A stretch of 64,000 bases of DNA from contig CAVSXG010000002.1 of assembly GCA_963731865.1 (NCBI GenBank), forward strand, positions 612,057-676,056, written 5' to 3'. The position numbers and the translations under genes are program-made. Below are positions 3,780 through 61,146 of the stretch, one piece after another. Numbering within the stretch: position 1 is the stretch's first letter; each line of letters begins with the position of its first letter. The DNA is from an uncultured Chloroflexia bacterium. Lineage in GTDB: Bacteria > Chloroflexota > Limnocylindria > Limnocylindrales > CSP1-4. The notes beneath the pieces are model-generated. The model was given only the letters and a program-made list of their open reading frames with translations, searched no databases and had not been told where the DNA came from.

Positions 3780-4563
3780 CTACCCTTCCGGCCCGCCGGG
3801 ATCGTCGGCCGAAAGCGCGGCCGGCGATGCCAGGGGACGCGAGTAGCGCAGGGTGACTGTCCCGGCAAAGGCGGGCATGTCGACCGTTTCGGGCTCCGCG
3901 AACGAGAGACGAATGCCATAGGCCTCCGCCCTGCTGCGCACGAAATCGATGAACCCAGCCGAGCGGCTCACCCTGTCGTACAGGTCGGTAGAGCCGATCG
4001 CCGTCACCTGGTATGGCGGCGCTAGATAGGCCGAGTTGACGAGCAACGACGAGCCGATATCGATGATCGCGGTCGTCGGCGTGACCCGTTCGTTGTTGAT
4101 GGCGATTGCCTCGGCTCCGGCGATCCATAGCTCTTCGACCACCGAGCGAATGTCCCGCGACCCGACGAGGTAGTCGGCATCGCTGGAACCAGGCGGGACC
4201 GGGACCTGCGGAGTCGTCAAGCAGCAGGACCATGCCCGTGCCCGACAACGGGATGAGGCCGGCGGCGATGCGCGCCGCTTCGAGGTCGGCGTTCAACTGG
4301 CGGACCTGATCGGCCGAGCCGATCCCCTGGCCCTCGATCCCCTGGATGGACTCCCGAAGCTCGAGGATGCGGACCTTGAGCTCGTCCTGCTGGGACTGGA
4401 GCTGTGTGGCGGTCTCGAGCAGCGGTGTACGTTCCTGGGTGGTGTAGCGGACCCGAGGACCCTCCGACCCGAGCTGGGCGGCAATCAGGAACCCAAGGGC
4501 CAGGAGCGCAGCGCCGAGCGTGACCTGCCAGCTCGGGATGCGGCGCACCCAGGCCAGGATCAT
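3780..4563 (-). pseudogene. DUF881 domain-containing membrane protein, split by an apparent 1-nt frameshift
   Basis: N-terminal half (MILAWVRRIPSWQVTLGAALL...LLLDDSAGPGP) is in the 4563 frame. C-terminal half (SSDADYLVGSRDIRSVVEELWIAGAEAIAINNERV...) is in the 3780..4220 frame. Junction at ~4186-4200 (ggtcccggtcccgcc). Confidence 0.6.
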
Positions 4564-16988: not shown

Positions 16989-17462
16989 TTGGCGTAGCTC
17001 GCCGTGCCACGCTCGGCGTAGAGCGAATCGACCTCTCGCTTGAGCGCCTCGAGATCCTCGAAGCTCTGGTAGACGCTCGCAAAGCGGATATAGGCGATCT
17101 GGTCGATGCCTCGAAGCTGCTCCATCGCAAGGGCACCGATGCGGGACGACGGGACTTCGGTCACGCCAGCCGAGCGAAGCTCGGCTTCGATCGCGTCGGC
17201 CGCCGACTCCGCGGCGCCGTCGGCAACCGGGCGACGAGTCGAGCGCCTTGCGCAGCCCGGAAACGAGCCGCTCACGATCGAACTCCTGGCGCGCGCCATC
17301 GCGCTTGAGCACGATCAGTCGGGCCGCCTCGACGCGCTCGTAGGTTGTGAACCGAAACGTGCAGGCAGCGCATTCTCGGCGTCGCCGGATCGTTGCCGAA
17401 TCATCGAGGTCGCGCGAGTCGACGACACGGGTCTCCCGCTCCGCACACTGGGGGCAGCGCAT
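16985..17462 (-). pseudogene. nrdR: Transcriptional repressor NrdR, split by an apparent 1-nt frameshift
   Basis: N-terminus [42 protein letters not shown]...GLRKAL is in the 17462 frame. C-terminus [10 protein letters not shown]...[11 protein letters not shown]... is in the 16985..17299 frame. Junction near 17226-17236 (gcccggtt). Confidence 0.7.
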
Positions 17463-18119: not shown

Positions 18120-19103
18120 TCAGGCCGTGCGCGCGCGGAGTTGCTCGAGGAGGGCGGCCCCTACCTCGAACAAGTCCCCCACGACAAGGAGGTCGGCGAA
18201 TTCGGCGATCGGCGCATCCGGGTCGCGATTGACCGCGACGATGCTCCCGGCGGTCTGCATCCCGACCTTGTGCTGGATCGCGCCACTGATCCCCAGGGCA
18301 AGGTAGAGCTCCGGCTTGACGATCTTGCCCGTCTGCCCGATCTGCTGGCTGTAGTTGATCCAGCCCGAGTCAACCGCGGCTCGGGTCGCGCCAACGACAC
18401 CGCCGAGGACCTCGGCCAGGTCACCAACGAGCCCGAAACCGTCCGGGCCGCCCACGCCGCGACCGCCTGCAACGATGATCCGCGCCTCCTCGATCGGGGC
18501 GGCCGCGCCCGCTTCGCTGACACGTTCGACGACCTTGACCGCCGGGATCGTCGGCCCGCCGGCGGTCCGGGTCTCGACCGTGCCCGACGCGTCAGACGGC
18601 ACGGCCGTGATGACGTTGGGACGGACGGTCACGATCCCCCGCCCTGCGGTGAAGTTGGACGTTGTCAACAGCTTGCCGCCAAAGGCGCTCATCTCGACGG
18701 TCGGCCCGGCGTCCGTCCAGGCAACCCCGGTCGCACTCGTGAGGACGCCAAGGCCAGCCAGGGCCGACAGTGCGCCGGCCAGGTCACGACCATCTGGGCC
18801 GGCACCGGTGAGGATGGCGTCCGGCGCTGCCTCGGACTGCTCATCGACCAGGCCGGCGACCCGCGCGGCCGCGATCGCCGACCACGCGTGCCCCTCGGCC
18901 GCGGGATCTGCGATCGTCCACACGCTCGGAAGGAACCGGGCAAGCTCGTCTGCGATCGCGTCAGGGGCTGCGGCCACCACGACGCCGACGACACCGCGGC
19001 CGCTCTGCGCCCCGAGATCGCGAGCGAGCGTGGCCACCTCGGCGGACAGCCGCGACAGGCCGCCTTCCGCCGAAGGCTCCGCGATGACCCACAGGTCGCC
19101 CAT
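18120..19103 (-). CDS. etfA: Electron transfer flavoprotein alpha subunit
   Basis: MGDLWVIAEP...RIIVAGGRGVG...LYLALGISGAIQHKVGM FAD-binding region. ATG at 19103 overlaps the etfB stop (TGATG); the ORF upstream of it is an antisense extension. Confidence 0.85.
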   Translation of the reverse strand: MGDLWVIAEPSAEGGLSRLSAEVATLARDLGAQSGRGVVGVVVAAAPDAIADELARFLPSVWTIADPAAEGHAWSAIAAARVAGLVDEQSEAAPDAILTGAGPDGRDLAGALSALAGLGVLTSATGVAWTDAGPTVEMSAFGGKLLTTSNFTAGRGIVTVRPNVITAVPSDASGTVETRTAGGPTIPAVKVVERVSEAGAAAPIEEARIIVAGGRGVGGPDGFGLVGDLAEVLGGVVGATRAAVDSGWINYSQQIGQTGKIVKPELYLALGISGAIQHKVGMQTAGSIVAVNRDPDAPIAEFADLLVVGDLFEVGAALLEQLRARTA

Positions 19104-19897
19104 CAGATGATCCGCCGCTGCGCGAGGAATTCGACGATCCTCGCGGCCCCGTCCGACGACGACCCGCGGACGATCTCCGTGGCCCCGCGGGCGGGCGGGG
19201 TCCGGCTGTCGAGCACGGCCGTGGTGGCCACGCCGCCTCCGACGGTGGCCGGGTCGATCTCGAGCTCGGCGAGCGAACGAGTGACGATCTCCTTCGACCG
19301 CGCGGCCATGATCCCCTTGAGCGACGGGTAGCGAGGTTCCCCGAGCGCCTGCGTGCAGGAGATCAGCGCGGGCATCGGAGCCTCCAGGACGTCGTACCCG
19401 GTCGGGCTGATCCGTCGGACGCGTACGATCCGGGCACCCTCGTCGGGCTCGATCCGAGCTGCATACGAGAGCAACGGCAACCCGAGAAGTGCGGCCACCG
19501 CCGCGGGGACCGTGCCGCCCAGCCCGTCTGAGGTGTCGACGCCGACCAGGACGAGGTCGAACGTCAACGGCTTGAGCGCCGCGGCGAGGACACGGGCCGT
19601 CGAGACCGTGCATGAACCCGCGAGGGCCGGGTCGGTCACGTGGATTCCGCGCGTCGCGCCCATCGCCAGCGCCTTGCGAAGCGTCTCGGGTGCGGAGGTG
19701 GGGGCCATCGACAGGAGCGTGACCTCGCTCCCATCGGACGCGGCGGTGGTGAGCTTGAGGGCCGCTTCGAGCGCGTACTCGTCATTGCCGTTGACGACCG
19801 AGGGCGTCGCCGTCCGATCGAGGCGGCCGTCGGCGCCGAGCCGCTCACCGCCGGATGCGGGGTCGGGAACCGGTTTTACGAGGACGACGATGTGCAT
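19103..19897 (-). CDS. etfB: Electron transfer flavoprotein beta subunit
   Basis: MHIVVLVKPVPD...NGNDEYALEAALKL typical EtfB. Confidence 0.85.
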   Translation of the reverse strand: MHIVVLVKPVPDPASGGERLGADGRLDRTATPSVVNGNDEYALEAALKLTTAASDGSEVTLLSMAPTSAPETLRKALAMGATRGIHVTDPALAGSCTVSTARVLAAALKPLTFDLVLVGVDTSDGLGGTVPAAVAALLGLPLLSYAARIEPDEGARIVRVRRISPTGYDVLEAPMPALISCTQALGEPRYPSLKGIMAARSKEIVTRSLAELEIDPATVGGGVATTAVLDSRTPPARGATEIVRGSSSDGAARIVEFLAQRRII

Positions 19898-19921
19898 GAA
19901 GTCTGGAACTCCTCCCTGCGA

Positions 19922-21115
19922 TCAGTCGTCCTTGCCAAGCAGTGCTCGTGCGATCACGAGCCGCTGGATCTGTTGGGTCCCCTCGTAGATCTGGGTGATC
20001 TTCGCGTCGCGCATCATGCGCTCGACGGGGAATTCGTCGATGTAGCCGTAGCCACCAAGGACCTGTACCGCGTCCGTGGTGACTCGCATCGCCGTGTCCC
20101 CGGCCACGAGTTTACACATCGCCGACCAGCGACCGGCGTCAGGAGCTCCTGCCTCGATCTCGACGCACGCCTTGTACAGGAGCTGGCGTGCCGCTTCGGT
20201 CCCGGCGTCCATGTCGGCGAGCATCGCGGCGATCATCTGGAGATCTCCGATTCGCTTGCCGAATTGACGACGCTCGGTGGCGTAGCGCGTGGCGACCTCC
20301 AGGGCGCCCTGGGCTATCCCGACCGCCTGTGCGGCAATCCCCGGTCGACTCCGCTCGAACGTCCTCATCGCGATGCCAAAGCCGTCGCCCTCGTCGCCGA
20401 TCCGGTTGTCCGCCGGCACGAGGACGTTGTCGAAAGCGAGCTCGGCGGTCGGGCTGCCCCGGATTCCCATCTTGTGTTCGATTCGAGGCACCGAGAACCC
20501 CGCGGTGGGGACCTCGACCATGAAGCACGAGAGGCGGCGATGTCGGGGCGCTTCCGGATCGGTCACCGCGAAGATCGTGATCAGGTCGGCCACCGAACCG
20601 TGGGAGATGAATCGCTTCGCGCCGCTGATCCGGTAATCGTCGCCATCGCGGATGGCGCGGGTCCGGGTCGCGGCGGCATCGGAACCCGCCTCCGCCTCGG
20701 TCAGGGCGAACGCGATCAGGGACGCACCGCTTGCCAGCTTCGGGAACCAGCGCGCCCGCTGATCTGGCGTGCCGGCGAGCAGCAGCGGCAGCGCGCCCAG
20801 CTCGTGAACGGCGAGGATCAGCCCGGTCGTGGCGCAGGCGCGGCTGAGCTGCTCGACGGCAAGGCAGACCGACAGCAGTTCGCCACCGAGACCGCCGAAC
20901 TCCTCGGGAAACGGAAGGGCCAGGATGTCCTGGGCGGCGAGGAGCTGCCGAAGGTCTTCGGGGAACTCCCCGGTTCGGTCGATATCCGCGGCACGAGGCG
21001 CCACGCGCTCGTCGGCAAGCTCGCGGACGGCATCGCGGAGGAGCCGCTGCTCCTCGGTCAACCGGTAAGGGCCTTGGGCTGGGCTCGGCGCGGTCACTTC
21101 GGCCGATCGTAGCAC
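19922..21115 (-). CDS. Acyl-CoA dehydrogenase
   Basis: Full-length ACAD fold with the catalytic glutamate region YEGTQQIQRLVIARALLG. Confidence 0.85.
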   Translation of the reverse strand: MLRSAEVTAPSPAQGPYRLTEEQRLLRDAVRELADERVAPRAADIDRTGEFPEDLRQLLAAQDILALPFPEEFGGLGGELLSVCLAVEQLSRACATTGLILAVHELGALPLLLAGTPDQRARWFPKLASGASLIAFALTEAEAGSDAAATRTRAIRDGDDYRISGAKRFISHGSVADLITIFAVTDPEAPRHRRLSCFMVEVPTAGFSVPRIEHKMGIRGSPTAELAFDNVLVPADNRIGDEGDGFGIAMRTFERSRPGIAAQAVGIAQGALEVATRYATERRQFGKRIGDLQMIAAMLADMDAGTEAARQLLYKACVEIEAGAPDAGRWSAMCKLVAGDTAMRVTTDAVQVLGGYGYIDEFPVERMMRDAKITQIYEGTQQIQRLVIARALLGKDD

Positions 21116-21246
21116 CGGGACGACGCGGCTTCCGGGGATGCGGTCTATGCCCTATTGCCGCCCGTCTGAGCCGCGCGTAGTCTCCTGTCAGCTGGTGGAC
21201 TGCGGCTTCGGGGGTCGCGGCAACCAGCAATCCGGGGTCACGCGAT

Positions 21247-21465
21247 ATGGAACAGACCCAGCTCGTTGCCATCACCGGCGCGGCCGCGCTTGGCATCCTG
21301 GCCACGATTGCCATCCTGCGCAGACAGCGCCACGCGCTCGAGCCACCACGAGAATCCCCGTTCGCGGTCTCCACCGAGGGCGAGAAACGCTGTCCGAAGT
21401 GCGGGATGGGCAACCTGTGGACGCAGGACCGCTGCATCACGTGCGGGACGAAGCTCGCGGGCTGA
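21247..21465 (+). CDS. Small membrane protein with C-terminal zinc ribbon
   Basis: TM helix followed by CPKCG...CITCG. Sits alone on the plus strand between minus-strand genes. Confidence 0.4.
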   Translation: MEQTQLVAITGAAALGILATIAILRRQRHALEPPRESPFAVSTEGEKRCPKCGMGNLWTQDRCITCGTKLAG

Positions 21466-21559
21466 TCAGAGCACCGGCAACTGCCGCGCGGCGGGGGCCG
21501 CGGCGATCCGGGCCGCAAGCACCTCGCTGACGTCCAGGGTCGCCACGGCCCGCCCGCCA

Positions 21560-23590
21560 TCAGCTGCCGCCAGGCCGTCGCTGAGCATGACCATGCAGAA
21601 CGGGCACGACGTCGCCACGGTGGCGGCGCCCGTCTCGACGACCTGACGGGCGCGCTCGGCATTGATCCGCGTGCCGCGCGTCTCCTCCATCCACATTCGA
21701 CCACCACCCGCGCCGCAGCAGAACGTGTTCTTGCCGCTCTTCTCGAGTCTCGGTGATGGTGACCCCGGCCGCGCCGAGGACGTCGCGTGGCGCGGCGACC
21801 ACGTTGTTGTAGCGGGCTAGATAACACGAGTCGTGCACCGTGACGGCGCCGGGCCGGTGATCCCCGGTGGTCGAGGTCGCATCCTCAGGGAGCGTCGCCA
21901 ACCGTCCAGATGCCACGAGATCGGCAAGGAACGTGCTGTGGTGGACGATCCGGAACTGGCCGCCGAGCTGGCCGTATTCGTTGCCGATCGTGTTGAAGCA
22001 GTGTGGGCAGGCGGTCACGATCGTTCGCTCACCCATGCCGTACCGGTTGAGCGTCTCGACGTTGCCCGACGCGAGGATCTGGTAGACGTAGTCGTTGCCC
22101 ATTCGCCGGGCCGGATCGCCGGTGCACGACTCCTCCTGGCCGAGAATGGCGAACTCCACGCCCGCGGCGTGGAGACAGGTCGCCACGGCACGCGCGACCT
22201 TCTGGTTCCGCGGGTCGAATGCGGCCGCGCAGCCCACCCAGTACAGGACCTCGAGCCCATCGAGCCCCCCCGCGGCAGCGACGTCGGCCACGAGGGGCAC
22301 CTCGAACGGGAGGCTCTTCGTCCAGTCGGTCCGCGCAGATGCCGGCTGGCCCCACGGGTTGCCCTGGCCTTCCATCGCCCGGAACGCCGGCGTCAGCTCG
22401 GCCGGGAAGCGGCTCTCCTCGAGGACAAGGTTGCGACGCAGCCCGACGATCTTGTCGACGTGCTCGATCAGGACCGGGCAGGCCTCGACGCACGCGCCGC
22501 AGGTGACGCAATCCCAGACCGCGTCGTACGGGATCGCGGTATCGACGATCGGTCGGGCCAGGGCCGCTGCCGCGGGTCGCGTGCCCTCGAGGCCGTACGT
22601 CTCGCGCACGATGGGGCTGTTGGGGATCAGGTCGATCCCGTGCTCGGCCTCGACCGACATGTCCCGGATGCCCATGATGAAGGTCTTGGGGTTGAGCGGC
22701 TTGCCGGTCGTCCAGGCCGGGCAGGCCGCCTGGCAGCGACCGCATTCGGTGCAGGTAAAGCCGTCGAGCAGATCCTTCCAGCCGAGGTCCTGGAGCGTCT
22801 TGAGCCCAAAGGTCGCGCTCTCGTCCTCGAGATCCATCTGGGGAAGCTCGCCACGCGGCGCGAGCTTGCGGAACAGGATGTTCGGGAAAGCTCGTGGCGA
22901 TGTGGAGGTGCTTGGAGAACGGCAGGTAGCACAGGAACGCCGCGACAAGCGCCATGTGGCCCCACCACAGGACGGCGAATGCAGCTTCGAGGCGTCGATG
23001 CGCCGAGCGCCCGCAGGGGCACGGCCAGGGCGTTCGACACGAACGCGCCGGTGATCTCGCCGTACCGCGCGACCTCGAAGGCCTGGGCCAAGCAGCTCGG
23101 TGGCGACGACCCCGCCGATCATGCCCAGGATCACGAGGGCATCGCGGTTGAAGGTGAGCCGCGCCGGCCGGGTGACGAGCCGACGAAGGTACGCCCAGCC
23201 GATCGAGACGAGGACGATGACGGCGACCACGTTCTGCATCGCGCTGATCGCCGCCCACAGCGCGCCGTCGAGCGGGATCGCGCAGGACGGTCTGGATGAT
23301 CCCGCCGGTCACGATGTCCGCCGTCCCGATCGTCAGCAGCACGAACCCCCAGAAGATGCCCGGCGTGCAGGAGCCCGGCGCGCAGGTCCTTGAACATCTT
23401 GGTCTGGAGGAACGCGTACTGGACCAGCCCGACGAGGCGCGCCGGGACGTTGGCGAACGGGCGCGACGGCCGGGCGACCGCGAACACCCGCAGGTGTCGG
23501 GCCATGGCCAGCGCGAAGAAGACCGCGGCACCCCAGAACACGCGGGAAGACGAGCGGATAGGCCGGGACCTCGACGAACGGCTCGAACAT
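21560..23590 (-). pseudogene. Membrane-bound (Fe-S)-binding oxidoreductase, heterodisulfide-reductase/GlpC-like (EtfD/Rv0338c-like), with multiple frame changes
   Basis: N-terminal polytopic membrane domain and C-terminal 2x(4Fe-4S)/CCG regions (CTECGRCQAACP, CVTCGACVEACP, WVGCAAAF, CPHCFNTIG). Pieces lie in at least 4 frames (23590, 23541, the 22029.. frame, and 23239/21560). ATG 23590 overlaps the mogA stop. Confidence 0.6.
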
Positions 23591-24062
23591 CAGGCGGTCG
23601 TGCCGTGGTCGTGCGGACCGGCCAGTGTCTCGAGCGCGTGGTCGAGCACGGTCTCGATGCGCCTCGAGCGATTCGAGCGCGCCCTTCGGGCTGCCCGGCA
23701 GGTTCGCGATCAGCGATCGCCCGCGCACGCCGACGACCCCGCGCGACAGGTCGGCCAACGGCGTCTTCGCTCGGCCGGCCGCTCGCATCGCCTCGGCGAG
23801 GCCCGGGAACCTCGTAGTCGATCACGCCTCGGGTCGCCTGCGGCGTCACGTCGCGGGGCGTGAGCCCGGTCCCGCCGGTGGTCACGACGAGCGGGTGGCG
23901 TGCGGCTCCCATCGATCGAGCGCCTCGCTCGATCGCAGCCTGGTCATCGGGGACGAGGACCCGCTCCACCTCGTACCCGAGCGTCGCCAGGCGATCGGCG
24001 ACGCCGGCTCCGGAGACGTCCTCGCGGACGCCGGCCGCGGCGCCATCGCTGGCCGTGATCAC
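23590..24062 (-). pseudogene. Molybdenum cofactor biosynthesis protein MogA/MoaB family, frameshifted
   Basis: N-terminal part ...PLVVTTGGTGLTPRDVTPQATRGVIDYEVPG is in the 24062 frame. ...MRAAGRAKTPLADLSRGVVGVRGRSLIANLPGSPKGALESLEA is in a second frame. The tail IETVLDHALETLAGPHDHGTTA* is in a third. Junction at ~23795-23806 (cccgggcc). Confidence 0.65.
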
Positions 24063-24089
24063 CAGCGCGGATCGCTCGGACGCCAGTCG

Positions 24090-24684
24090 TCATGCGCGGG
24101 TCGCCCTGCGCTTCCCGCCGATCCTGCCCGCGATCCGTCGCCCGGATGGCGGTTCGGGGCGGTCGTCCACCGGGCCGGGCGCGCGCTCCCAGGTCCCGCT
24201 CTTGCCGCCGGTCTTGGAGAGCAGTCGCACGCCGCGGATCTCGACGCCGCGCTCGGCGCCCTTGACCATGTCGTAGACGGTCAGCGCCGCGACCGACGCC
24301 GCGGTCATCGCCTCCATCTCGACGCCGGTCTGACCGGTCGTGGCGGCCTCGGCCCGGATCCGCAGGACGCCGACTGGCTCGATCCGGGGTGATCGCCACC
24401 TGGAGATCGGTGAGCGGGAGCGGGTGGCACAGCGGGATCAGCTCGCTTGTCCGCTTGCCGCCCATCACGCCCGCCAGCTCGGCCACGCCGAGGACGTCGC
24501 CCTTGGAGCCGCCGCCGTCGATCACGAGGCTCATCGTCTCGGGCGAGACCGCCACCGTGGCCTCGGCGACCGCGCGACGCGCCGTGACCGGCTTGGCCGA
24601 CACGTCGACCATCCGTGGCCGGCCCGACCGGTCGACATGCGAGAGCCGTCGACGCTCGGATCGCGGCGCTGGTTTCTGGTCCAT
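24090..24684 (-). pseudogene. moaC: Cyclic pyranopterin monophosphate synthase MoaC, frameshifted
   Basis: N-terminus ...[19 protein letters not shown]...[21 protein letters not shown] is in one frame. C-terminus ...[28 protein letters not shown] is in the 24090..24317 frame. Junction at ~24385-24392 (ccccgg). Confidence 0.65.
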
Positions 24685-24689
24685 TCGGT

Positions 24690-26052
24690 CCTCCGGGTCG
24701 GGTGGCGATCGGGTCAGGCGCTGTCGAGCCACCAGATGGCGACCTCGGCGCCCGCCGGAAGCGAGTCGAGCGGATTCTGGAACGATCGCGAGGGCATCGG
24801 CGGCAGCGAGGGCGGACATCACGTGACTCCCCTGCCCGCCCGCGAGGCGGACGCGGACACGGCCCCGCTCGTCGCGGACCGGCGCGCCGTCGTCGGACCG
24901 TTCCGCCTGGACGCGCAGGTACGCCCGACGACCGTGGCTCTTGGTGACGGGCTGCATCGAGCACGGCCCGATCGGCCGGACGGAGCAGGTCGCGCCGCCC
25001 GGCGAGACGCCGGATCGCGGGCCGGACGAAGAGCTCGAACGTGACCGCCGACGAGACCGGGTTTCCAGGCAGGCCAAAGACCGAGGATCGGCGCACCGCC
25101 GTCGGGTCGCGGCGCGGTGCCGAACGCGAACGGCTTGCCCGGTTGGACCGCCACCCGCCAGAGATCGACCCGTCCGATCGTCTCCATGGCGGTCTTGACG
25201 ACGTCGTACGGCCCGACGGACACGCCGCCCGAGATGATCAGCGCGTCGGCCCCGACCTCGATGCCGCCGCGCAGCCGCTTGAGCACGTCGGCGAGATCGT
25301 CGGTCGCGATGCCGAGATCGATCGCTTCTGCGCCCGCGGCTGCGACCTGGGCGCGCAGACCGGGGCCGTTGGCATCGGGAATGCCCGCCGGGCCCAGCGG
25401 CTCGCCGGGCGCCCGGATCTCGTCGCCGGTCGCGAGCACGCCGACACGCGGGCGTCGGTAGACGCGGAGCGCATCGACGCCGGCGCCGGCGACCAGGGCA
25501 ATCGCGGCCGCCGTCAGCGCGACGCCGGCCTCGAACAGCGTGTCGCCCGGCCCGGAGGTCGCTCGCGGCATCGCGGATGGAGCCACCGACCGGCACGACC
25601 TCGTGGACGAGGCAGGCCGACGGCAGCGGACCAGTCGCATCCCGTCCACGAGACCCGGGATGGCCAGCCGCATCGAGCGGGGTCGTCAGTTCGACCGGCA
25701 CGACGGCGTCGGCGCCGTCGGGAAGCCGCGCGCCGGTGGCGATTCGGACGGCCGTCCCGGGCCGGACGACGACGCTTGGCGCGGCCCCTGCCGCGACATC
25801 GCCGATGACGCGGAGCTCGACCGGGCTGGCGTCGGCTGCCCCGGCGGTATCGGCGGCCTGGATCGCGTACCCGTCCATCGCCGAATTCGGCCACGGCGGC
25901 AGCGAGACCCGCGCGGTCACGGGCTCGGCGACGACCCGCCCGAGCGCGGCGGCCGTCGACATCCGCTCGGTCTCCACCGGGACGAGCTCGGCGAGGATCG
26001 CATCGCGTGCCGCCTCGACACTGAGCAGACCCGGAGCCGCGGGCGCCGTCAT
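24690..26052 (-). pseudogene. moeA: Molybdopterin molybdotransferase MoeA, several frameshifts; 3' end approximate
   Basis: MoeA segments (...[20 protein letters not shown]..., ...[24 protein letters not shown]...[11 protein letters not shown]..., ...[29 protein letters not shown]..., ...[19 protein letters not shown]) are distributed over three frames. One junction at ~25547-25556 (gccgggcg). Confidence 0.6.
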
Positions 26053-26068
26053 CGGCTTCGCGCGGGGG

Positions 26069-26772
26069 TCACGACTGGCTCGATCCGCTGCGGTCGTGAG
26101 CTCGGTGGTCGGCGCGCGGCCCACGCCGACGGTCGCCCGGCGCCCCGCGAGCGACGGCAGTGACGAGGGCGAGCGCGATGATCACGACGCCGACGACGAC
26201 CGCGGTCTCCTGCCAGAACACGAAACGGGAAGAGCTGGACGAGCCGCTCCGTCGCCGGGTCGAAGGTGTACGAACCGCCTGGGAACAGCAAGCCGATGGA
26301 ACAGCTCGAACAAGGCCTCGAACGCGACCAGCGCAACGACCCCGATCAACGCCACGGCTCCCGCCAGCACGAGCGCGCCACGACGAACCGCGACCCAGAC
26401 CGCCGCGTCGTTCCATGCGCCGGCTCGCCGACGAGGAGGATGACGAGCGACGCCGCCGCGAGGATCCAGAGGCCCGATGAAGACCGTCCGCACGTCGCGC
26501 ATGTGCCCGCGCTCGCGCTCGACGAGGACCGGCGACCCGCCAACCTCCACGTCGAAGTCCGGCGGCCCGATGACCAGGTCCGACAGGATGGCGTCGGTCG
26601 CGGTCCGGAGCTCCTCGGTCGTGTAGCCGGTCCACGCGACGGCGTTCGCGCGACCCTGCTCGAAGGCCACCCACTGCGGGGTCAGGAACGGCAGCACAGC
26701 GGCCGTGACGACGACGGTCGCGGTCGCCACCCCGATCAGGATCGAAGCGATCGGCCTCCGGATGGCGTGCAC
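26069..26772 (-). pseudogene. Hypothetical integral membrane protein (possibly DUF1461/TIGR01906-like), apparently frameshifted
   Basis: Convincing N-terminus MHAIRRPIASILIGVATATVVVTAAVLPFL...VERERGHMRDV. A C-terminal TM ([21 protein letters not shown]) lies in another frame. Confidence 0.35.
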
Positions 26773-26798
26773 CGGGTCATCCTAGCCCGTCGCGCGGC

Positions 26799-27188
26799 CT
26801 ACTCGTCCTCGAGCGTCTTCGCCTGGTCCCACCAACCCTCCATGGCGAGATCCGATGGCGGGTCGACCTTGAGCTCGATGGCCGCCGCGCGGACCCGCGC
26901 CTTGAACACATCCAGCGGCAACTCGAGGATCTGCCGAAGGCCCTCGATCCCCGCCTGGACCAACAGCTCGTGCTCCGCCGGACCAAAGCTCGCGAGGTTG
27001 AGCATGAGCGCCTCGTCTCGCCACATCAGCACGTCGTTGACGGTGGCGTCGACCTGGTCCGCGAGGTTCTGGCGGCGGGTCGGCGTCTCCGAAACCTCGA
27101 GCAGCAGACCGGTCGTGAAGACGCCCTGATGGTCGAGGCGATCGAGATGGACCGGCTCGATGCGGGTCAGCTCGTTGATCGGTGGCAC
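26799..27188 (-). CDS. DUF4332-like helix-hairpin-helix protein
   Basis: LTRIEPVHLDRLDHQGVFTTGLL and a second HhH-like repeat. Confidence 0.45.
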   Translation of the reverse strand: MPPINELTRIEPVHLDRLDHQGVFTTGLLLEVSETPTRRQNLADQVDATVNDVLMWRDEALMLNLASFGPAEHELLVQAGIEGLRQILELPLDVFKARVRAAAIELKVDPPSDLAMEGWWDQAKTLEDE

Positions 27189-27277
27189 GGGTCGGGCGGG
27201 ACCTCCAAAGGCGATGCTGGCGATCTGGCTTGGCTCGCGATGGGGTCATTATCCCCGCGCTGGTGGTGCGTCGCGCG

Positions 27278-27592
27278 CTAGATCGGTCGGAGATGCGAGA
27301 TCACACCGTAGGTCCTTCCGGTCTCGGGGTCGTTCCGGGCCGCAACGACCAGGCGTCGCAGTCCCGCCGGAGTCTCGATCCGGCAGGCCAGAGCCGCGCC
27401 ACGCTGGTAGACAAGGTCCATCAGCTCGAACGCGGCCGGCGGCAGATCCAGGAGCGCCTCACGGGCCGGCTGGCCGACGCACCCATTGCCGAACGCCTCG
27501 ATAAAGGCGGCGTTGCCATGCACGATGAGGTGGCCGGGGCCAATGTGAAACGCCGCGGGGTACGGGCGTCGCGCGGCTGAGTCGACGCCCAT
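27278..27592 (-). CDS. Small hypothetical protein (PAS-like fold), translationally coupled to the decarboxylase
   Basis: ATG at 27592 overlaps the decarboxylase TGA (ATGA). 104 aa with no low-complexity sequence. Confidence 0.4.
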   Translation of the reverse strand: MGVDSAARRPYPAAFHIGPGHLIVHGNAAFIEAFGNGCVGQPAREALLDLPPAAFELMDLVYQRGAALACRIETPAGLRRLVVAARNDPETGRTYGVISHLRPI

Positions 27593-29092
27593 CAGACCGC
27601 CGCCACCTGTTCCGCGGCGGCCGCGCGCAACAGGTCCCACGCTCGCTCGACGTGCCGGCTCTCGGTCCGAAGGTTGCCGACCGCGACCCGGATCGTGAAT
27701 CGCCCGGCGAGTCGCGTGTGCGACAGGAACACCTCGCCGGTACGATTGACCGCATCCATGATCGCCGCATTCGCGTCATCGAGCAGCTCGCGCGACGTCC
27801 GGCGCCTCGGCACGGTTGGCAAGCTCGGCGGGCCGCCAGCGGAAGCAGACCGTCGAAAATGGGACAGGCGCCAGGAGCTCCCAGTCCGGATCGGCCCCGA
27901 TCGTCGCGGCGAGATCGGCGGCGAGCTCGAGGTGGCGCTCGATCCGTCGTCGCAGACCGTCGAGCCCGAACCAGCGCAGCTGGATCCACAGCTTGAGCGC
28001 CCGGAACCGACGTCCGAGCTGCGGGGTGTACTCGTTGTAGTCGCGGACCGGCGTCGCGCGATCGAGGGTCCGCAGGTACTCGGGCACAAGACTGAAGGCT
28101 GCCCGCAGCTCCGGCATTCGGCGCGTCAGCAGAAGCGATGCGTCGAGCGGCGTGAACAGCCACTTGTGCGGGTTGATCACGATCGAGTCGGCTCGTTCCC
28201 AACCCGCAAAGGGTGCGCGACGGTCGGGCAGCATGGCGACGACGCCGGCATAGGCGGCATCGACGTGCAGCCAGAGGCCTTCCTGCGCCGCGACGTCCGC
28301 AATCGCTGCGACCGGATCGACCGAGGTCGACGATGTCGTTCCGACCGTCGCCACGATTGCGATCGGCCGGAATCCACGCAGCCCGGTCTTCCGCGATCGC
28401 CTGCCGCGAGCGCGTCCACGACCATCTCGAACCGCTCGTTCACCGGAACGCGGACGAGCGAAACACGCCCAAGCCCGAGGGTCATGCACGCCTTCTCGAC
28501 CGAGCTGTGCGCCTCGGCCGAGGCGTAGACGCGCAACCCGGCACCCAGGTCGTCGCGGGCGGCCAGACCGCGAGCCGAGGCATCCGTCCCCGCGGCTTCC
28601 CGGGCCGCCGCCAGCGCGATCAGCGTCGAGGTCGACGCGGTGTCCGGTGAGGAGTCCGTCGAACCCGTCGGGCAACCCGACGGCCTGCCGCAGCCAGTCG
28701 ACGACGACCTCCTCGAGCTCCGTGCCGATCGGCGAGGTCCGCCACAGCATCGGGTTCTGGCCGAGGGCCGCCGTCAGCATCTCCCCGAGGATTCCGGGGC
28801 CCGATGCCGTCGTCGCGAAATAGGCGAGGAACCCCGGGTGTTGCCAGTGCGTGGCGTTTGGTTCGACCAGCCGGGCATAGTCGGCCAGGATCGCCTCGAT
28901 CGGTTCAGGGGCCTCCGGCGCCGCGGTCGGGAACTGGGGTCGCAGGGAGCCGGGCTCGATCGCCGGAAAGACCGCGCGTGTCTCGACCGTTTCAAGGTAG
29001 TCGGCCATGACGTCGACGACCGCGTGCGCGGCCGCCCGAAAGGCCTCGACGTCCATGTCAAGGAGTGGGGCTGGATGGTCCGGGTCGGTCAC
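27592..29092 (-). pseudogene. Pyridoxal-dependent (group II) amino-acid decarboxylase, frame changes in the middle
   Basis: N-terminus ...WQHPGFLAYFATTASGPGILGEMLTAALG..., middle ...RVYASAEAHSSVEKACMTLGLG... (other frame), PLP region ...WLHVDAAYAG...INPHKWLFTPLD..., C-terminus ...LSHTRLAGRFTIRVAVGNLRTE (third frame). Confidence 0.65.
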
Positions 29093-29116
29093 CGGGCCAG
29101 TGTATGACCTGCCCTA

Positions 29117-29524
29117 TACCGTGTCGGCCGATCGCCCTCCGAGGAACCCGGCAACCGCCTCGACCAGCTCGGCGGGACGATACGGCTTGGCCAGGAAGCC
29201 CGACGCGCCCGTGGCGAGGGCGGTGGCCCGTTCGGCCGGCAGCACGCTCGCGCTCAGGACCACGAATGGAGGGCTTGGACCGCCGCGATCGGCGCCTTCC
29301 CACATTAGCGACAGCCCGTTCCCGTCCGGTAGACGGACGTCGAGCAGGACGAGGTCAACGTGGTTCGTGGCGAGGATGGCGCGGGCGGTTGCCAGGTCCG
29401 GCGCTTCGAGCAGGACCAGCCCGCGCAGACGGTCATCGGTCGCTCGTTCGAGCACCGCACGCAGCAGTACGCGGTTCGGCTCCTCGTCCTCGACGACGAG
29501 GACGACGGGGGGTCGTGCCGTCAA
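29117..29524 (-). CDS. Response regulator, receiver domain only
   Basis: VVLVVEDEEPNR...LVLLDVRLPDGNG...AKPYRP. A likely TTG start overlaps the upstream TGA (TTGA). Confidence 0.65.
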
Positions 29525-32195
29525 CGAGACGCCAGCGGCACCGCGTGATCGAGCCAATCGAGCAGCCCGACGCGAGCATCCTGTCCCTTGGTCACAATGC
29601 CGAGGATTTTCCCATTGAGCCGGTACTTCTGCTCCGGGCTCAGGTCGTGACCGGTGCACACCACGATCGGCAGGCCCGCCGTGCGTTGGTTGTGCTTCAG
29701 TGCGGCGATGACCTCGAACCCATCCACGTCCGGCATCACCAGGTCGCAGACGACGAGATCGACGAGTTGGCCGTTCTCGGCCCACTCGAGTGCCTCCCGG
29801 CCACCCTGCGCGGTGACCACCACTACGCCTTCGGGCTCGAGTGCCCCGCGGATATAGGCGAGCGCGGCGGGCTCGTCGTCAACGACGAGCACCCGTTTGG
29901 CCACGCCGCGCACGTCGTCCGCCGCCACGAACCGCGCCAGACAGCCAAGCAGCGCCTCGCGATGGATCGGCTTGACCAGGTAATCGACGGCGCCGAGCGC
30001 CAGCCCGACCTCGCGTTCCTCGACGACCGTCACGATGACCACCGGCACGTCCTGGAGCTGTGCGTCCGCCTTTAGCCGCCGGAGGACTTCCCAACCGTCC
30101 ACGCCCGGCAGGAGGACATCCAGGACGATGGCCGCCGGACGCGAGGCCCTGGCAGCCGTGATCCCGGTCTCCCCCGTGGAGGCGACCCTGACCTGGTATC
30201 CCGCCCCCTCGAGATACTCGCGGAGCAATCGAACCGCACTCGGATCATCCTCGATGACCAGGATGTCGCCCGATACGGCAGGTGCGCCGTCGGCCGTTTC
30301 CAGACCGGGCAAGTGGGTCGTTCGATGGCCGCACCCTCGGCGTCCTGCGCCGGCAGGACGAGCGTGAACGTGCTGCCGTGACCACGCGCCGACTCCAGTT
30401 CGATCCTGCCACCGTGCGCCTCGGCCAGGCGTTTCGTCACCGCGAGCCCCAGTCCCGAGCCCGGCTGTCGCTCGGACGGGTCGCCAACCTGGCGGAATTC
30501 CTCGAAGACGCGCGGGTGATCCTCGGCCGCGATCCCGACGCCGGTGTCGGCAACGGCAATCCGAACCTCGCCACCGGCCATCGACGCCGTCACCCGGATG
30601 GACCCGCCATCGGGCGTGTACTTGATCGCGTTCGAGATCAGGTTGTAGAGGATCTGGCGGAACCGGCCGCGGTCCACGGCCACGTTGAACGAGCGTGCTT
30701 CCGCGTGGAATGCGAGGTTCTTGCGATCCGCCAGCGGGCGCAGGCCGTTGACCGCTTCGGTGACCGCGAGACCAACGTCGACGGGCTCCGGGCGGAGCTC
30801 CAGGCGGCCCGCTTCGACCCGGGCAAGATCGAGGACATCGTTGACCAGGGTCAGGAGGTGCTGTCCGCCACGCTGGATGTGGTCCACCCATTCGATCGGC
30901 ACCGATACGTTGTCGCCATCGCGTGGCTCCGTGGTCATCAGGTCGCTGAAGCCGATGATCGCCGACAACGGCGTCCTGAACTCGTGGCTCATCGATGCCA
31001 CGAAGTCGCTCTTCGCGGCGCTCGCCGATCGCAGCGCCTCGACGGTGGTCGCCAGGCGGTCGGCCAGTGCCTCCTGGTCCGCCATCACGGCACGCCGCTC
31101 GGCGACGATCGCCGTCTGCGCGCCAAGGGCCGCGAGCAGCTCGGCATCTGACGGGTGGAACAGGGCTCGGTGGGTGGACATCAGAATGAGGGCGCCGCGG
31201 TCGCCACTTCCCGGCAGCTCGACTGGGACAATCGAGACATACCGGGCGCCGGCCGCCTCGGCCAGAGCCTTGCGGATCGGACCAACCTCCGCGACCGGGA
31301 CGTCCCAGCGCGACCGGCCGGACTGCACGTTCTCGTCGAACTGCGACCACGTCATCGACTCGAGGTTCTCGGGCGCGGTCATGCCGGTGGTCGCGATCAG
31401 GGACACGGCTCCGGTACGCGGCCCAGTCAGCATCGCCGCGAAACCGCCCTGCATCCGAACGGCGACGTCCGTGAAGCCAGTCCAGATTCTGTCGATCGGG
31501 TCTCCTGAGCGCGCGATCAGCTCGCGCGTGTAGTCAACCGTCGTCCGCGCCTGCGCGATGCGACGAATCGGGCCGGGCGGGAGCAGTGCCAGCACATATC
31601 CGACGCCCGACAGGAGCGCGAGGACAGCAGCGGTAGCGCTCGAGACCGCGGTCGGAGCGGAGATGACGGCACCCACGGTCGCGACGACCAGGGCGAACGC
31701 GAAGACCCCGGTCGAGATCCCGGCCAGACCCATCCGGACCGCGACTGGACCCCTTCGGCGGACCGCTTCCAGGAGGAGGTAGATCGCCGCTGCCGCCTCA
31801 AAGACGACGAACCCGCCAACGACGACGATCGCGGCGATGGCCCTCGGCCCGACCACATCGATCGCGCCCGGCAGGACGACAGCCAGAGCGGTTCCTCCGA
31901 CGAGGATGATCGCGCTCGCCCAGAGCAATTGCCGAGGGACCGGGCGAAGCAGGGACACGAGATGCAGGACAAAGACCGGCTGCAACAGGAACAGTCCGCC
32001 CGCGATCGCCCGAAGGATGGGTGACGGCGACCCGACTGATCCTTTCCAGATCTCACCAACCAGGGCCGCTGCAAGGGGGCTGAACACCAACGCCAGGTCG
32101 CGGCTCACCGGGTCACGCTGTCGGGCGTACCTCCAGAGGGTCGCGAGGAACGGGACGAGGAAGAGTCCCTCCACGATGGCGGTCAGCCAGTTCAT
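29521..32195 (-). pseudogene. Hybrid sensor histidine kinase (membrane sensor, HisKA, HATPase_c, two receiver domains), 1-nt frameshift between kinase and receivers
   Basis: Polytopic N-terminus, SHEFRTPLSAI H-box, GLGLAVTKRLAEAHGGRIELES ATP-lid. Then, in another frame, two REC domains (DILVIEDDP...LDVLLPGVDG..., KRVLVVDDEP...DLVMPDVDG...). Junction at ~30315-30325 (gcccggtc). Confidence 0.7.
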
Positions 32196-33431: not shown

Positions 33432-33612
33432 CCGCGTCGGCGGCCCGGGACGGGTTCGCAGCCTGGGCCACGGCGCCGACCTCCTCGTTCGGCCGGTATA
33501 GGACCTCGCCGACGTATGCGCTACAGTCGGACGTCAGGAGCGTCGACCAACGTCGCTTGCGGCCGTGCGACGACTCCCCGCATTTGGCTACCTTGGGAAC
33601 ATACGAGGAGAC

Positions 33613-52658: not shown

Positions 52659-53586
52659 TCAGGCCCGCGGGTGGGCCCGGCTATAGACGTCCCGGATCCG
52701 CTCTCCGGTCAGGTGCGTGTAGAGCTGTGTCGTGGAGATACTCGCATGACCGAGCAACTCCTGGACGATCCGCAGGTCGGCGCCGCCCTCGAGCAGATGC
52801 GTGGCAAACGAGTGCCGCAGGGTATGCGGACTGACCCGAGCGGCGAGGCCCGCCCGGGACGGCGGCCCGTTTGACGGCGGCCCATGCCTGTTGGCGGGCC
52901 AGGCGGCCGCCGCGATCGCCGACGAACAGGGGACCGCCTCGACCCGGGTGGGCAGGCCCGACCGCGAGGAGTCTCGCCCTCGGCCCATCGATCCAGCGTG
53001 CCAACCAGTCCAGGGCAACCTCGCCGACCGGGACGAGGCGTTCCTTGTCACCCTTTCCGATCACCCGGACGAACGACCCGTCGGTCGATAGGTCCTCACG
53101 GTCGAGTCCGGTAGCTTCGCTGATGCGCAGGCCAGCGGCGTAGAGCAGCTCGAGCACAGCTCGATCGCGCAACCCGTGTGGCTCGCCGTCCTCGCCGCCG
53201 GCCGCGTCGAGCAGGCGGTCCGTTTCGGCGACCGTGAGCGTCTCGGGCAGTAGCCGCGAGGGTCGCGGCAGATCCAGGTGCGCGGCCACGTCGACACCGA
53301 TCAGGCCCTCGCCGTAGGCGAACCGATAGAACCCCTTGAGCGCGGCCGCCCGCCGTCGGAGGCTGCTCGGCGCCAGCCCCGGATCGTTGCGACGCCCACG
53401 GCGCGTTCGAGCGGCCAGGTAGTCGATCGCCGCCTCCGCGGACGCGGACCATGCCCGCCCGACATCGCGCGCGGCCGCGAAGTCGGTCAGGTCGGCCCGA
53501 TAGGCCCGGATCGTCGCCGGGGAGAGCCCACGCTCAACGTTGAGATAGGTCAGGTAGCCGTCGATCGCGGGCTGAAGGTCGGTCAT
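52659..53586 (-). pseudogene. xerD: Tyrosine recombinase XerD, apparent 1-nt frameshift near the C-terminus
   Basis: MTDLQPAIDGYLTYLNVERGLSPATIRAYRADL... in the 53586 frame. Catalytic C-terminus ...[40 protein letters not shown] is in the 52659 frame. Junction ~52865-52872 (gtcccgggcg). Confidence 0.75.
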
Positions 53587-53596
53587 GTGGCCGGCG

Positions 53597-55298
53597 TCAT
53601 CCCGCCCGGGCGACACCGGCCCGCCACGCCTCGGCCCGATCGAGCAGCTCCCGGGCGCTGGCGAGGCTCGTCGCCCCGCCCGCATCGCCGGCGAGCATCT
53701 GGGCGAGCTCGACGATCCGTCCCTCGTGGTCGAGCTGCTCCACCTCCGTGACGGTCCGGCCGTCGCGCTCTCGCTTGACGATCCGATACTGGGCGTCGGC
53801 GTGCGCCGCGATCTGCGGCAGATGCGTCACGCAAAGCACCTGGTGGCGACGGGCCAGGGCCCACAGGCTTCGACCGACCGGATCGGCGCCACGGCCTCCG
53901 ATCCCCGTGTCGACTTCGTCGAAGACCAGCACTGGCGTTTCGTCGGCTTCCGCGAGCACCTGCTTGATCGCGAGCGCAACACGGGACAGTTCCCCGCCAG
54001 ACGCGATCCGAGCCAGCGGGCGAGCCGGTTCGCCCGGGTTTGGCGCGAGGCGGTAGACGACCTGGTCGGCGCCGCTGGCATCGAATGCGACGGCGTCGCC
54101 GTCGAGCTCGATCGCGGCCTCGTCATCCGCAGCCACGCGTCGTCCAAGACCCACCTCGAAGACACCGGCCGGAAAGCCGAGCTCGGAGAGGATCCCGCCG
54201 ACCGCCCGGACAAGCGCGTCCGCGGCCGTTCGCCGCGCCTCGGACAGGGCCGTCGCCTCGCTGGCGATCGCAGCCAGCAAGGCCGCGTCCTCGCGCTGCC
54301 GACGGGCTCGCTCGTCGTCGAGACCGCGGAGTCGCTCGAGCTCGGCCAGGGCTCGTTCCCCGTGGGCGATGACGGCCGCCTCATCCTCGCCGTACCGGCG
54401 CTCGAGCGCGTAGATCGCGCCGAGTCGCTCCTCGAGCGCGGTGAGCGCGGCGGGATCGTGGTCGACGCCATCCGCGAGATCGCGGATCTCCGCCGCCACG
54501 TCGGTCAGCTCCGCTTCCAGACCGGTCAACCGTTCCGCGAGCAGTTCGAACCGCGGGTCGAGCCGGGCCAGCCCACGTGCCTCGCGCGCAGCCACGGCCG
54601 TCGCTTCGCGGGCGCCGGCGCCGTCGGCGGTCAACGCGTCATGGACGGTCACCGCTCCCCGGGCGATCGCCTCGCCATGCTGGGCGGCCGCGAGGCGTGC
54701 ACGGATCGCTTCGGCTTCTCCCGGCACCAGGCGGGCCGCCACCGATCTCTGCCGCCTCGTGTTCGAGCAGGTCCACGCGACGGGCCAGCTCGCGCGGTTC
54801 GATCGACAACTCCGACAGGGCCGCGCGGTTGGCGCGCCATCGCTCGACGACGTCGACCATGGACGCGCGCGCCGGTCCGTGCCCGCCAAACGCGTCGAGG
54901 AGGTCCCGCTGCCAGCGTTCATCGAGCAGCCGTTGCTGATCATGCTGGCCGTGGATCTCCACGAGCGGCCCTACCTCGTCCGCAAGGCGCGACGCGGTCG
55001 TGGCGAGGTCGTCGAGCCTGGCCGTTGAACGCCCGTTCGCCGCAACCTCGCGCACGGCGATCAGCGGCTCCGGCAGGCGGTCGAACAACGCCTCGACCCG
55101 CGCCGTTTCGGCGCCATGCCGGATCACGGTCGTGTCGGCTCGTGCGCCGGCAACCAGACCGAGCGCGTCGATGATCAGGCTCTTTCCGGCACCCGTCTCG
55201 CCGGTGATCACGTTGAGGCCTGGGGCGAGCGTCAGGCGAAGCCGGTCGATCAATGCGAGGTCGATGACGGTCAGTTCCAGGAGACGCCCGGCGTTCAC
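53597..55298 (-). pseudogene. recN: DNA repair protein RecN, apparent frameshift
   Basis: N-terminus ...LNVITGETGAGKSLIIDALGLV (Walker A) to ...LEHEAAEI in the 55298 frame. Remainder including ...LVFDEVDTGIGG is in the 53597 frame. Junction ~54725-54740. Confidence 0.8.
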
Positions 55299-59627: not shown

Positions 59628-61146
59628 TCATCGCGGGTCCGCGGAGGCCGGGATCTCGCCACGGGCGACCCGGAGGGACAACTTCGATCCCGGCGGCGCA
59701 TCGTCGGGATCACGGACGATCGCGCCGTTCCCCGCCAGCCGAACGATGGCGTAACCACGCTCCAGGGTCGCCTGCGGCCCGAGGACGCCAAGTGCCGCGG
59801 TCGCGCTGCCGAGCGACCGGCGACCGGTGTTCAGCCGCGTGACGATGAGCGGATCCATGACGACGGCTTGACCCAGCCGGACCCGGTCGCGCGCCAGCCG
59901 TGACGGCAGCGTTGGTGCCAGGCGGCGACCGAGTCGTTCGACCGCCCCCTGGTGAGAGCCGACCCGCTCACGCGTCGCCCTCGTAGCTCGATCGAGCAGC
60001 AGCCCGACGCGCTCCCGCGCCATCGTGAGCTGCACGGCGGGACTCAGTCGATCAAGGGCGCGACGTTCCGCCGCGATCTCACGGACCGTGGCCCGAACGC
60101 GCGACGTGGCTGCGCCGTCGAGCCTGCGTCCAAGCGATGCAATCGCGGCCGCGTGTTCGGCACGATCCGGAACGACGATCTCGGCCGCGGCCGACGGCGT
60201 CGGTGCCCGGACGTCGGCGGCGAAGTCGGAGAGCGTGACGTCGGTCTCGTGGCCAACCCCGCAGACGACGGGCAGGGTGTGCGCAACGATGGCTCGGACG
60301 ACGGCCTCGTCGTTGAACGCCCAGAGATCCTCCAGCGATCCCCCACCCCGGGCCAGGATCGTGAGCACCGGGGCATCGTCGGCTCGCCCGGCTGCGATCT
60401 GCGCGGCGGCATAGCGCTCGACCTTGCGGAGGGCGCCGACCAGGCTGCCCGGGGCGGCATCGCCCTGGACCTGCGCCGCGACGAGCACGACCCTCGTCAG
60501 CGGCCAGCGCCGCGACAGAACATGGCAGATGTCCTTCCAGACCGCGCCGCTGGGGCTCGTGATCACGGCGATCGTCCGTGGACGGCTCGGCAGACGGCGT
60601 TTGCGCTCCGTGGCAAAGAGACCTTCCGCCGCCAGCCGGGCCTTGAGCGCCTCGAACCGCAGCGTGAGATCGCCGAGCCCGGACGGCTGGATCGAATTCG
60701 ACGTAGAGCTGGAGCGCGCCCTGTGGCTCGAACAAGTCGATCCGGCCGTGCGCCACGACACGCAGCCCAGCCTGGGCCTCGAATGCCGAGCGTTGCCGAT
60801 CGTCGCGGAACCAGACGCACTGGAGCTGGTTCCGGTCGTCCTTGAGCGCGAAATAGGCATGGCCGGCCGACGAGATCGTGACCCGCCCGATCTCGCCTTC
60901 CACCCAGAGGTCCGAGAGTTGCGGGTCGGTGCGCACAGCGCCCCGGATCGCTCGCGTGACCTCGCTGACGGCGAGGATTCGGACCCCGAAGGTGCCCGGA
61001 GCGGCGAGGGATCCGGGCGAGGACCCCGCGGGGGGACCCGGTGGGATCGTCGCCCGGCCAACGGGTCTCTGTGACGCCTCGCCCGGCTCTGCCGGGAGCG
61101 AATCCCAGCTTGGCAGCGCCCAATCAGGTGGTTCGTTACCGCTCAT
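59628..61146 (-). pseudogene. xseA: Exodeoxyribonuclease VII large subunit, apparent frameshift
   Basis: OB-fold N-terminus ...LSDLWVEGEIGRVTISSAGHAYFALKD...LQLYVEF in the 61146 frame. Remainder QPSGLGDLTLRFEALKARLAAEGLF... in the 61061 frame. Junction ~60690-60700. Confidence 0.75.

Follow-up and report, generated by a model that had tools for sequence, protein, structure and literature searches.

A dense cluster of frame changes in the 64,000-nucleotide window (the whole stretch of DNA that was analysed) very likely reflects a local failure of consensus building or polishing in a long-read assembly, and not the loss of genes. Since the breaks are taken as consensus errors, the region would say nothing about the metabolism of the organism. 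The window itself most likely derives from a Nanopore-only long-read metagenome assembly.

To locate the frame changes, we used a frameshift-aware protein-to-DNA dynamic programme of our own with orthologues from five short-read relatives, and a codon-usage Viterbi analysis, as an independent method, gave the same sites; the dense frame changes claimed for this place in the preliminary description were thus found to be present. All event positions are approximate. Ordinary tblastn was dropped, because wrong-frame open reading frames (ORFs) in high-GC DNA still align with it and short frame changes remain hidden. In six minus-strand genes at 21.7-28.7 kb, 24-25 frame changes were obtained, about one per 290 bp, and the limits of the dense block were set at 21.75-28.65 kb. 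The 24 events observed in the block compare with 3.2-3.9 expected (Poisson P = 1e-13 to 5e-12). The rest of the window held five verified events and up to six unverified candidates, near to the earlier count of about seven single events. It had also been stated that all but two of nine consecutive genes between ~22.9 and ~32.2 kb were disrupted. Most genes of the run are indeed disrupted and the clustering is real, but the run comprises ten genes, all on the minus strand, of which three are intact (the DUF4332 protein, the 120-aa ORF and the response regulator), and the dense block covers a different span, the hybrid kinase carrying only a single event of opposite sign. The earlier gene identifications (EtfD-like, mogA, moaC, moeA, membrane protein, PLP decarboxylase and hybrid kinase) were borne out by Pfam domains. 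The genes and events are listed in Table 1.

Table 1. Genes of the disrupted run and verified frameshifts in the rest of the window, with positions counted in the window.
Feature	Position	Strand	Events and evidence
DUF881 gene, +1 frameshift	4205..4217 (~4211)	-	Viterbi; PF05949 positions 2-145/146 across junction
nrdR, +1 insertion	17234..17246 (~17240)	-	Five orthologues concur; ATP-cone domain spans junction
EtfD-like membrane-anchored Fe-S oxidoreductase (2x 4Fe-4S, 2x CCG)	21469..23590	-	Seven single-base insertions, at ~21748, 22889, 22992, 23092, 23282, 23361, 23542 (alignment to five short-read orthologues)
mogA (MoCF_biosynth)	23591..24093	-	Insertions ~23659, ~23807
moaC	24090..24684	-	One insertion ~24372
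moeA	24714..26052	-	Insertions ~24768, 24952, 25084, 25548
Lit-family membrane protein (PF07314)	26075..26772	-	Insertions ~26153, 26221, 26292, 26404, 26430, 26477
DUF4332 protein, intact	26799..27188	-	Four orthologues, no frameshift; PF14229 match
120-aa ORF, appears intact	27278..27640	-	Single coding frame in Viterbi path
Group II PLP-dependent decarboxylase	27592..29092	-	Insertions ~27790, 28375, 28404, 28645
Single-domain response regulator, intact	~29114..29530	-	Single frame; PF00072 match
Hybrid histidine kinase (HisKA, HATPase_c, two receiver domains)	29521..32195	-	One frame change ~30307-30320
xerC/xerD-type recombinase gene, +1 frameshift	52847..52859 (~52853)	-	Viterbi; PF00589 spans junction
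recN, +1 frameshift	54737..54749 (~54743)	-	Viterbi; joined protein is a single SMC_N match, residues 27-518
xseA, +1 frameshift	60686..60698 (~60692)	-	Viterbi; OB-fold and Exonuc_VII_L either side of junction

Every event in the block consisted of one extra base (+1), and this was also seen at each site of the EtfD-like gene in the DNA alignments. In mogA, a third insertion probably lies between 24066 and 24085. When the block (24-25 events) and the five verified flank events were taken together, 29 of 30 events were +1 (sign test P = 3e-8), the exception being the hybrid kinase, whose frame change is of opposite sign (-1 or +2) and falls in an unconserved linker, where its exact site is not placeable; it was revealed by alignment to a single 1040-codon ORF of the locus L038 and by a Viterbi switch at 30320. 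The extra bases were mostly G or C and mostly outside long homopolymers. At least 14 of the 25 insertions cannot be homopolymer extensions, which counts against a Nanopore origin in so far as classical Nanopore errors are deletion-biased homopolymer indels. Around 82 insertion sites, no 2- to 4-mer showed significant enrichment; the strongest 4-mer was ACGC, with an uncorrected P = 0.002 in 256 tests. In the genome and metagenome contig collections searched, no frameshift-free reference of the same species was found; the closest match to the window showed 79% DNA identity and 89% amino-acid identity, and for this reason the exact inserted base could often not be pinned down. The GC content of the window peaks at 24-26 kb (0.745), but it was rejected as the reason for the location of the block, since other stretches above 0.71 GC were free of events.

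Outside the block, an event was taken as verified when Pfam domains ran across the junction, and housekeeping genes (nrdR, recN, xseA and xerC/D) were among those affected. The Viterbi switches at 43629 (der/gpsA) and 46221 (plsC/ispH) proved to be ordinary gene boundaries, and those at 10996, 14885, 36043, 47966, 51623/51706 and 62341/62398 were set aside as unverifiable N-terminal noise. The weakly coding stretch at 36.5-42.4 kb was considered as an rRNA operon and this was discarded, as Rfam finds two tRNAs only.

Removal of the extra bases gave full-length Pfam domains across all junctions. The repaired EtfD-like protein is 705 aa long, contains CCG (two stretches) and Fer4 domains, and had none of its 385 invariant residues changed. 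A protein of the EtfD type should have a membrane part at its N terminus, two motifs for 4Fe-4S clusters and two CCG domains, and its gene should be linked to etfBA and to a gene for an acyl-CoA dehydrogenase. The gene described here agrees with this, and acyl-CoA dehydrogenase, EtfB and EtfA are encoded at 18.1-21.1 kb, adjoining it. By analogy with M. tuberculosis Rv0338c, its product may function as an ETF oxidase. The three molybdenum-cofactor (Moco) proteins MogA, MoaC and MoeA, once repaired, contained their family domains above the Pfam gathering scores. MogA matched PF00994 (positions 2-140/144, 93 bits) with 0 of 74 invariant residues changed, MoaC matched PF01967 (positions 1-136/136, 175 bits), and MoeA contained MoeA_N, MoCF_biosynth and MoeA_C at full length (PF03453, PF00994 and PF03454 with 134, 96 and 48 bits, respectively) with one of 192 invariant residues changed. 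The stop codon of moaC overlaps the start codon of mogA (ATGA). In the repaired Lit-family protein, PF07314 was matched at positions 5-176/176, spanning all six junctions, and in the repaired decarboxylase PF00282 was matched at positions 1-374/375. The 120-aa ORF at 27278-27640 matched no Pfam family.

As a control, the identical method was applied to related Limnocylindria loci, an event being counted if it was doubly supported. The assembly type of the control MAGs was judged from contig and isolate names together with PMC12313526, according to which the MFD MAGs were built from Nanopore reads alone, with Flye as the assembler and a single round of Medaka polishing. No frameshift was obtained in 10 short-read MAG loci (~96 kb), where the orthologues were single uninterrupted ORFs. 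On the other hand, 12 Nanopore-only MFD MAG loci (~115 kb) yielded 45 frameshifts, 41 of them +1, and these were clustered, with eight inside 660 nt in the locus L021. The signature therefore follows the sequencing technology and not the lineage. Together with the uniform +1 sign in the block and the lack of decay in the repaired genes, its restriction to Nanopore-only MAGs upholds the local drop in consensus quality that the preliminary description had offered as one of its two readings.

The other reading was a coordinated decay of the Moco pathway, in which mogA, moaC and moeA, and hence all molybdoenzymes, would really have been lost along with neighbouring accessory genes. Such pseudogenisation would suit the run of seven disrupted genes, three of which belong to a single pathway, and the strongly non-random clustering. 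However, no in-frame stop was found in any repaired reading frame of the block, and alignment to the orthologues revealed no deletions, truncations or missing segments in its genes. The repaired block proteins were changed at 8 of 1040 invariant positions (0.8%) against 8 of 881 (0.9%) in intact flank genes, an invariant column being one invariant in at least six short-read relatives; leave-one-out change rates at such columns in the short-read genomes were 1-6%. Codon periodicity was likewise unaltered (the three-base GC periodicity of the block was 0.309, that of the flanks 0.315-0.337). Bacterial pseudogenes have mixed indels with a deletion bias, whereas the indels of the block were 100% +1. 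From substitution-to-indel ratios, ~24 neutral indels should bring well over 100 substitutions, and these were not seen. The damage also ignores pathway boundaries, the EtfD-like gene (seven events) and the Lit-family gene (six) being hit hardest and the decarboxylase carrying four, and elsewhere the same signature appeared only in Nanopore MAGs, where it affects other genes. The decay claim is thus not upheld, and we consider real pseudogenisation highly improbable. That the extra bases are real in another way, a localised +1-only mutational process (e.g., error-prone patch synthesis) having recently struck these 7 kb and put the Moco genes and those around them out of action, appears extremely improbable; if true, it would imply similar bursts in other Limnocylindria, unseen in short-read assemblies.

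Two further explanations place the fault in the sequence, as the favoured reading does. With strain heterogeneity, the consensus would keep both alleles of a SNP in tandem, so that a SNP-dense segment would become an insertion-dense one, which would explain why the events cluster and why they are insertions only. Many sites can indeed be read as two adjacent alleles with both variants present in relatives (for example, GGG+C before ATC, compared with GGG-ATC or GGC-ATC; C+G before TG, compared with CTG or GTG; TTT+C; GTC+G), and 21 of the 25 events fit a pair at the third codon position. However, any non-homopolymer insertion is trivially readable as an allele pair, and by our estimate ~60-67% of random insertions would be compatible with the third position, so that 21 of 25 is only marginally above this level. 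The pairs are moreover mostly G/C and not the transitions expected of natural SNPs, and, as we reason, the likelihood and pile-up models of Flye and Medaka should not favour tandem alleles. Although attractive to the eye, this explanation is regarded by us as unlikely and is retained as a sub-hypothesis only. Nanopore errors are also known to be linked to DNA modification, and a systematic basecalling error at modified (methylated) motifs clustered in the region was considered. Two pairs of insertions, each from different MAGs, coincide at an orthologous codon, one at MoeA residue 379 (the window and the locus L055) and the other at EtfD residues 384/385 (L013 and L016), as such an error might produce. 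These two coincidences within one codon equal the calculated chance expectation of ~2, and recurrent orthologous positions were therefore rejected as a signal. Modification-linked errors are usually substitutions, and the lack of an enriched motif at the 82 sites speaks against this explanation as well, which we find very unlikely.

For the consensus-error explanation, the following course may be envisaged. A ~7-kb stretch where polishing failed would hold the concentrated errors, each event would be one spurious base, and the underlying genes would be intact and functional in the organism. The local cause may be low read depth or mixed strains; Nanopore consensus sequences have been reported to retain frameshifting indels below ~40x coverage (PMC9262707). 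The polisher presumably adds a base on the word of a minority of reads more readily than it takes one out, and such an asymmetry would produce insertions alone, with no surplus of substitutions.

Read literally, the block would describe an uncultured soil Chloroflexota lineage without Moco and molybdoenzymes that has also lost its ETF-oxidising enzyme, and this claim is unfounded. Clustered +1 insertion errors occur in Nanopore-only MAGs of this high-GC class, some of which are GTDB species representatives, and they will split genes, raise the number of apparent pseudogenes and falsify calls of pathway completeness. Three signs of such errors can be read from the sequence alone, namely that all events are +1, that stops are absent and that conserved residues are intact.

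Pseudogene clusters of genome reduction, as in Mycobacterium leprae, combine adjacent disrupted frames with stops, deletions, raised non-synonymous change and eroded codon bias. The block described here shares the adjacent disrupted genes, but it lacks stops, deletions, change at conserved sites and eroded periodicity. Programmed +1 ribosomal frameshifting, as in prfB, takes place at only one position in a gene, marked by a conserved slippery or stop motif that is kept in orthologues. Here a +1 change in conserved genes is also found, but with up to seven sites per gene, no enriched k-mer at the 82 sites and uninterrupted orthologues in short-read genomes. A localised insertion-rich region, as in the block, has been reported for another high-GC bacterium, Propionibacterium freudenreichii, in whose R10.4.1 Flye assembly the insertion errors were concentrated in one region (PMC11649196); that case concerns an isolate genome and a PCR-based library, its scale and cause may differ, and the insertions there were perhaps not single-base. 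The indel errors of Nanopore-only genomes and metagenomes (Sereika et al., 2022, PMC9262707), with which the IDEEL test and proovframe are meant to deal, are classically homopolymer-associated and deletion-rich, whereas here nearly all are +1, mostly outside homopolymers of at least three bases, and clustered at 1/290 bp over 7 kb. MAGs of lower quality or low coverage often contain such errors, and the likeness to the block is clear: single-base indels split genes, correction returns full-length genes, and short-read assemblies of relatives are free of them.

Frame changes in the window were mapped by a frameshift-aware protein-to-DNA alignment, in which the orthologous ORFs of five related Limnocylindria loci from short-read assemblies (L038, L003, L006, L015 and L017) served as references, and by a reference-free codon-usage Viterbi analysis in six frames; the two methods were concordant. 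Because wrong-frame ORFs are long in this GC-rich DNA (66-74%), ORF lists and ordinary tblastn blur short frame changes. A dense patch at ~21.7-28.7 kb on the minus strand (the block), from the EtfD-like gene through the PLP decarboxylase, carried one event per ~290 bp, against a spacing of 5-10 kb in the rest of the window (Poisson P 1e-13 to 5e-12), and the contrast between a crowded run and a sparse remainder drawn in the preliminary description was thus confirmed. Three genes amid the disrupted run were intact: those of a DUF4332 protein and of a single-domain response regulator, and an ORF of 120 aa. Outside the block, five events were verified and about six remained unverified candidates; two further apparent switches were found to be ordinary gene boundaries.

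Features of the window with their frame changes and, for repaired proteins, differences at invariant columns
Feature	Position	Strand	Frame changes	Differences	Remark
DUF881 gene	4211		isolated +1		Pfam domain through junction
nrdR	17240		isolated +1		Pfam domain through junction
moeA to etfA gene run	18126-26052	-
EtfD-like Fe-S oxidoreductase	21469-23590	-	7	0/385
mogA	23591-24093	-	2, probably 3	0/74
moaC	24090-24684	-	1	2/128
moeA	24714-26052	-	4	1/192
Lit-family membrane protein	26075-26772	-	6	1/60
PLP decarboxylase	27592-29092	-	4	4/201
Hybrid histidine kinase	29521-32195	-	1
VWA_2/fibronectin type III protein	33565-35445	+
Weakly coding stretch	36500-42370
tRNA-Pro(GGG)	42373-42449	-
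xerC/D	52853		isolated +1		Pfam domain through junction
recN	54743		isolated +1		Pfam domain through junction
xseA	60692		isolated +1		Pfam domain through junction

When the extra bases were removed, Pfam domains matched the repaired proteins end to end and all gene identities were confirmed; the EtfD-like label is further supported by the adjoining acyl-CoA dehydrogenase, etfB and etfA genes. The moaC stop overlaps the mogA ATG at 24093 (ATGA). From this ATG to the conserved GTGATCACG there are 34 nt versus 33 nt in L003, which implies one further +1 insertion in mogA, hidden in ORF lists because the in-frame GTG at 24062 provides a false start.

A search of the genome collection with a MoeA fragment matched 80 related loci, nearly all of them MAGs and nearly all labeled Chloroflexota, Candidatus Limnocylindrales or Limnocylindria, the best having ~79% DNA identity to the window. 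Searches of the genome and metagenome collections gave no sequence from the same species, the best match having 89% amino-acid identity, and look-ups of two intact proteins of the window gave no existing record. Synteny with the relatives was kept from ~15 kb to 29 kb, and the order moeA-moaC-mogA-EtfD-like, a short gap, then acyl-CoA dehydrogenase, etfB and etfA is common to many Limnocylindria MAGs. The non-syntenic segment beyond includes the gene of a large protein, anchored in the membrane, in which VWA_2 and fibronectin type III domains are combined with a linker rich in Pro and Thr. A weakly coding stretch of ~6 kb, bounded at its end by tRNA-Pro(GGG), has few credible ORFs and a GC content of 0.65-0.66. 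Its periodicity of 0.19 lies between that of shuffled sequence (0.13) and that of genes (0.32), and the stretch may represent accessory DNA, DNA of foreign origin or the remains of decayed sequence. The tRNA directly adjoins the hybrid kinase in L038, so gene order there differs from that of the window.

Local DNA alignments against 2-5 relatives revealed exactly one extra base per site in the window. Every one of the 24-25 events in the block was +1, as were the five verified in the flanks, the sole exception being that of the hybrid histidine kinase, in an unconserved linker where the exact site cannot be placed (29/30; sign test P = 3e-8). The shared sign of the flank events indicates an assembly-wide insertion bias. 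For at least 14 of 25 insertions, homopolymer extension was impossible.

The preliminary description had offered coordinated decay of the Moco pathway as one reading of the run, and this was rejected. No stop codon occurred in any repaired frame, and the three-base periodicity of GC was equal in the block (0.309) and the flanks (0.315-0.337). At columns that did not vary across six or more short-read relatives, repaired block proteins differed at 8/1040 positions versus 8/881 in intact neighbor genes; the short-read genomes themselves gave leave-one-out rates of 1-6%. Going by neutral substitution-to-indel ratios and by the deletion bias of bacterial pseudogenes, two dozen real neutral indels should come with numerous substitutions as well as occasional stops and deletions, and none of these accompanying changes was present in the block genes. 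The damage also paid no heed to pathway boundaries.

As a technology control, 22 related loci were aligned in the same frameshift-aware way to L038 and L003 proteins, and an event was counted only with support from both. The ten short-read loci, recognized by assembler names (k141/k127/NODE), gave no event in ~96 kb of aligned coding sequence versus 45 in ~115 kb for the 12 Microflora Danica (MFD) loci; 41 of the 45 were +1, and they were clustered. The MFD MAGs are Nanopore-only Flye assemblies with one round of Medaka polishing (PMC12313526). Seventeen events were spread across L055 (CAWDXA010000011.1), eight lay within 660 nt (14804-15464) of L021 (CAWHYQ010000001.1), and L042 (CAWEYB010000001.1) and L013 (CAVURK010000006.1) had eight and seven; five MFD loci had none. 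The clusters sat in different genes from one MAG to another, those affected in these four MAGs, which serve as species representatives, including acyl-CoA dehydrogenase, EtfD-like, MogA, EtfB and decarboxylase.

Pure +1 changes, absence of decay and the short-read versus MFD difference support the other reading, a local drop in consensus quality. The block is not a real biological feature; it very probably consists of uncorrected +1 consensus errors of long-read assembly, with the genes intact in the organism. As for the local cause, the simplest inference is that depth was low here or that the assembly graph was followed along a strain of lower coverage. If the polisher took minority support for an added base as sufficient, a pure insertion bias without excess substitutions would follow. 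A specific variant, tandem retention of both alleles at strain SNPs, is attractive to the eye in the local alignments but could not be separated statistically. A methylation-motif cause found no support in a motif test of the insertion sites, and insertion positions coincided between MAGs at chance level. Two different Nanopore MAGs, L013 (12946) and L016 (4531), do each carry an additional T at one and the same orthologous site of the EtfD-like gene (GAG^GCCGAG to GAGTGCCGAG), a hint of sequence-context effects behind some errors, though the coincidence total fits chance.

The same signature in public Nanopore-only MAGs of the class Limnocylindria, some of them species representatives, calls for caution. 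Frameshifting indels persist in Nanopore consensus below ~40x coverage, and MAGs with many frameshifts can still pass high-quality criteria (PMC9262707). In an R10.4.1 assembly of a high-GC bacterium, most of the errors were insertions within a single region (PMC11649196).
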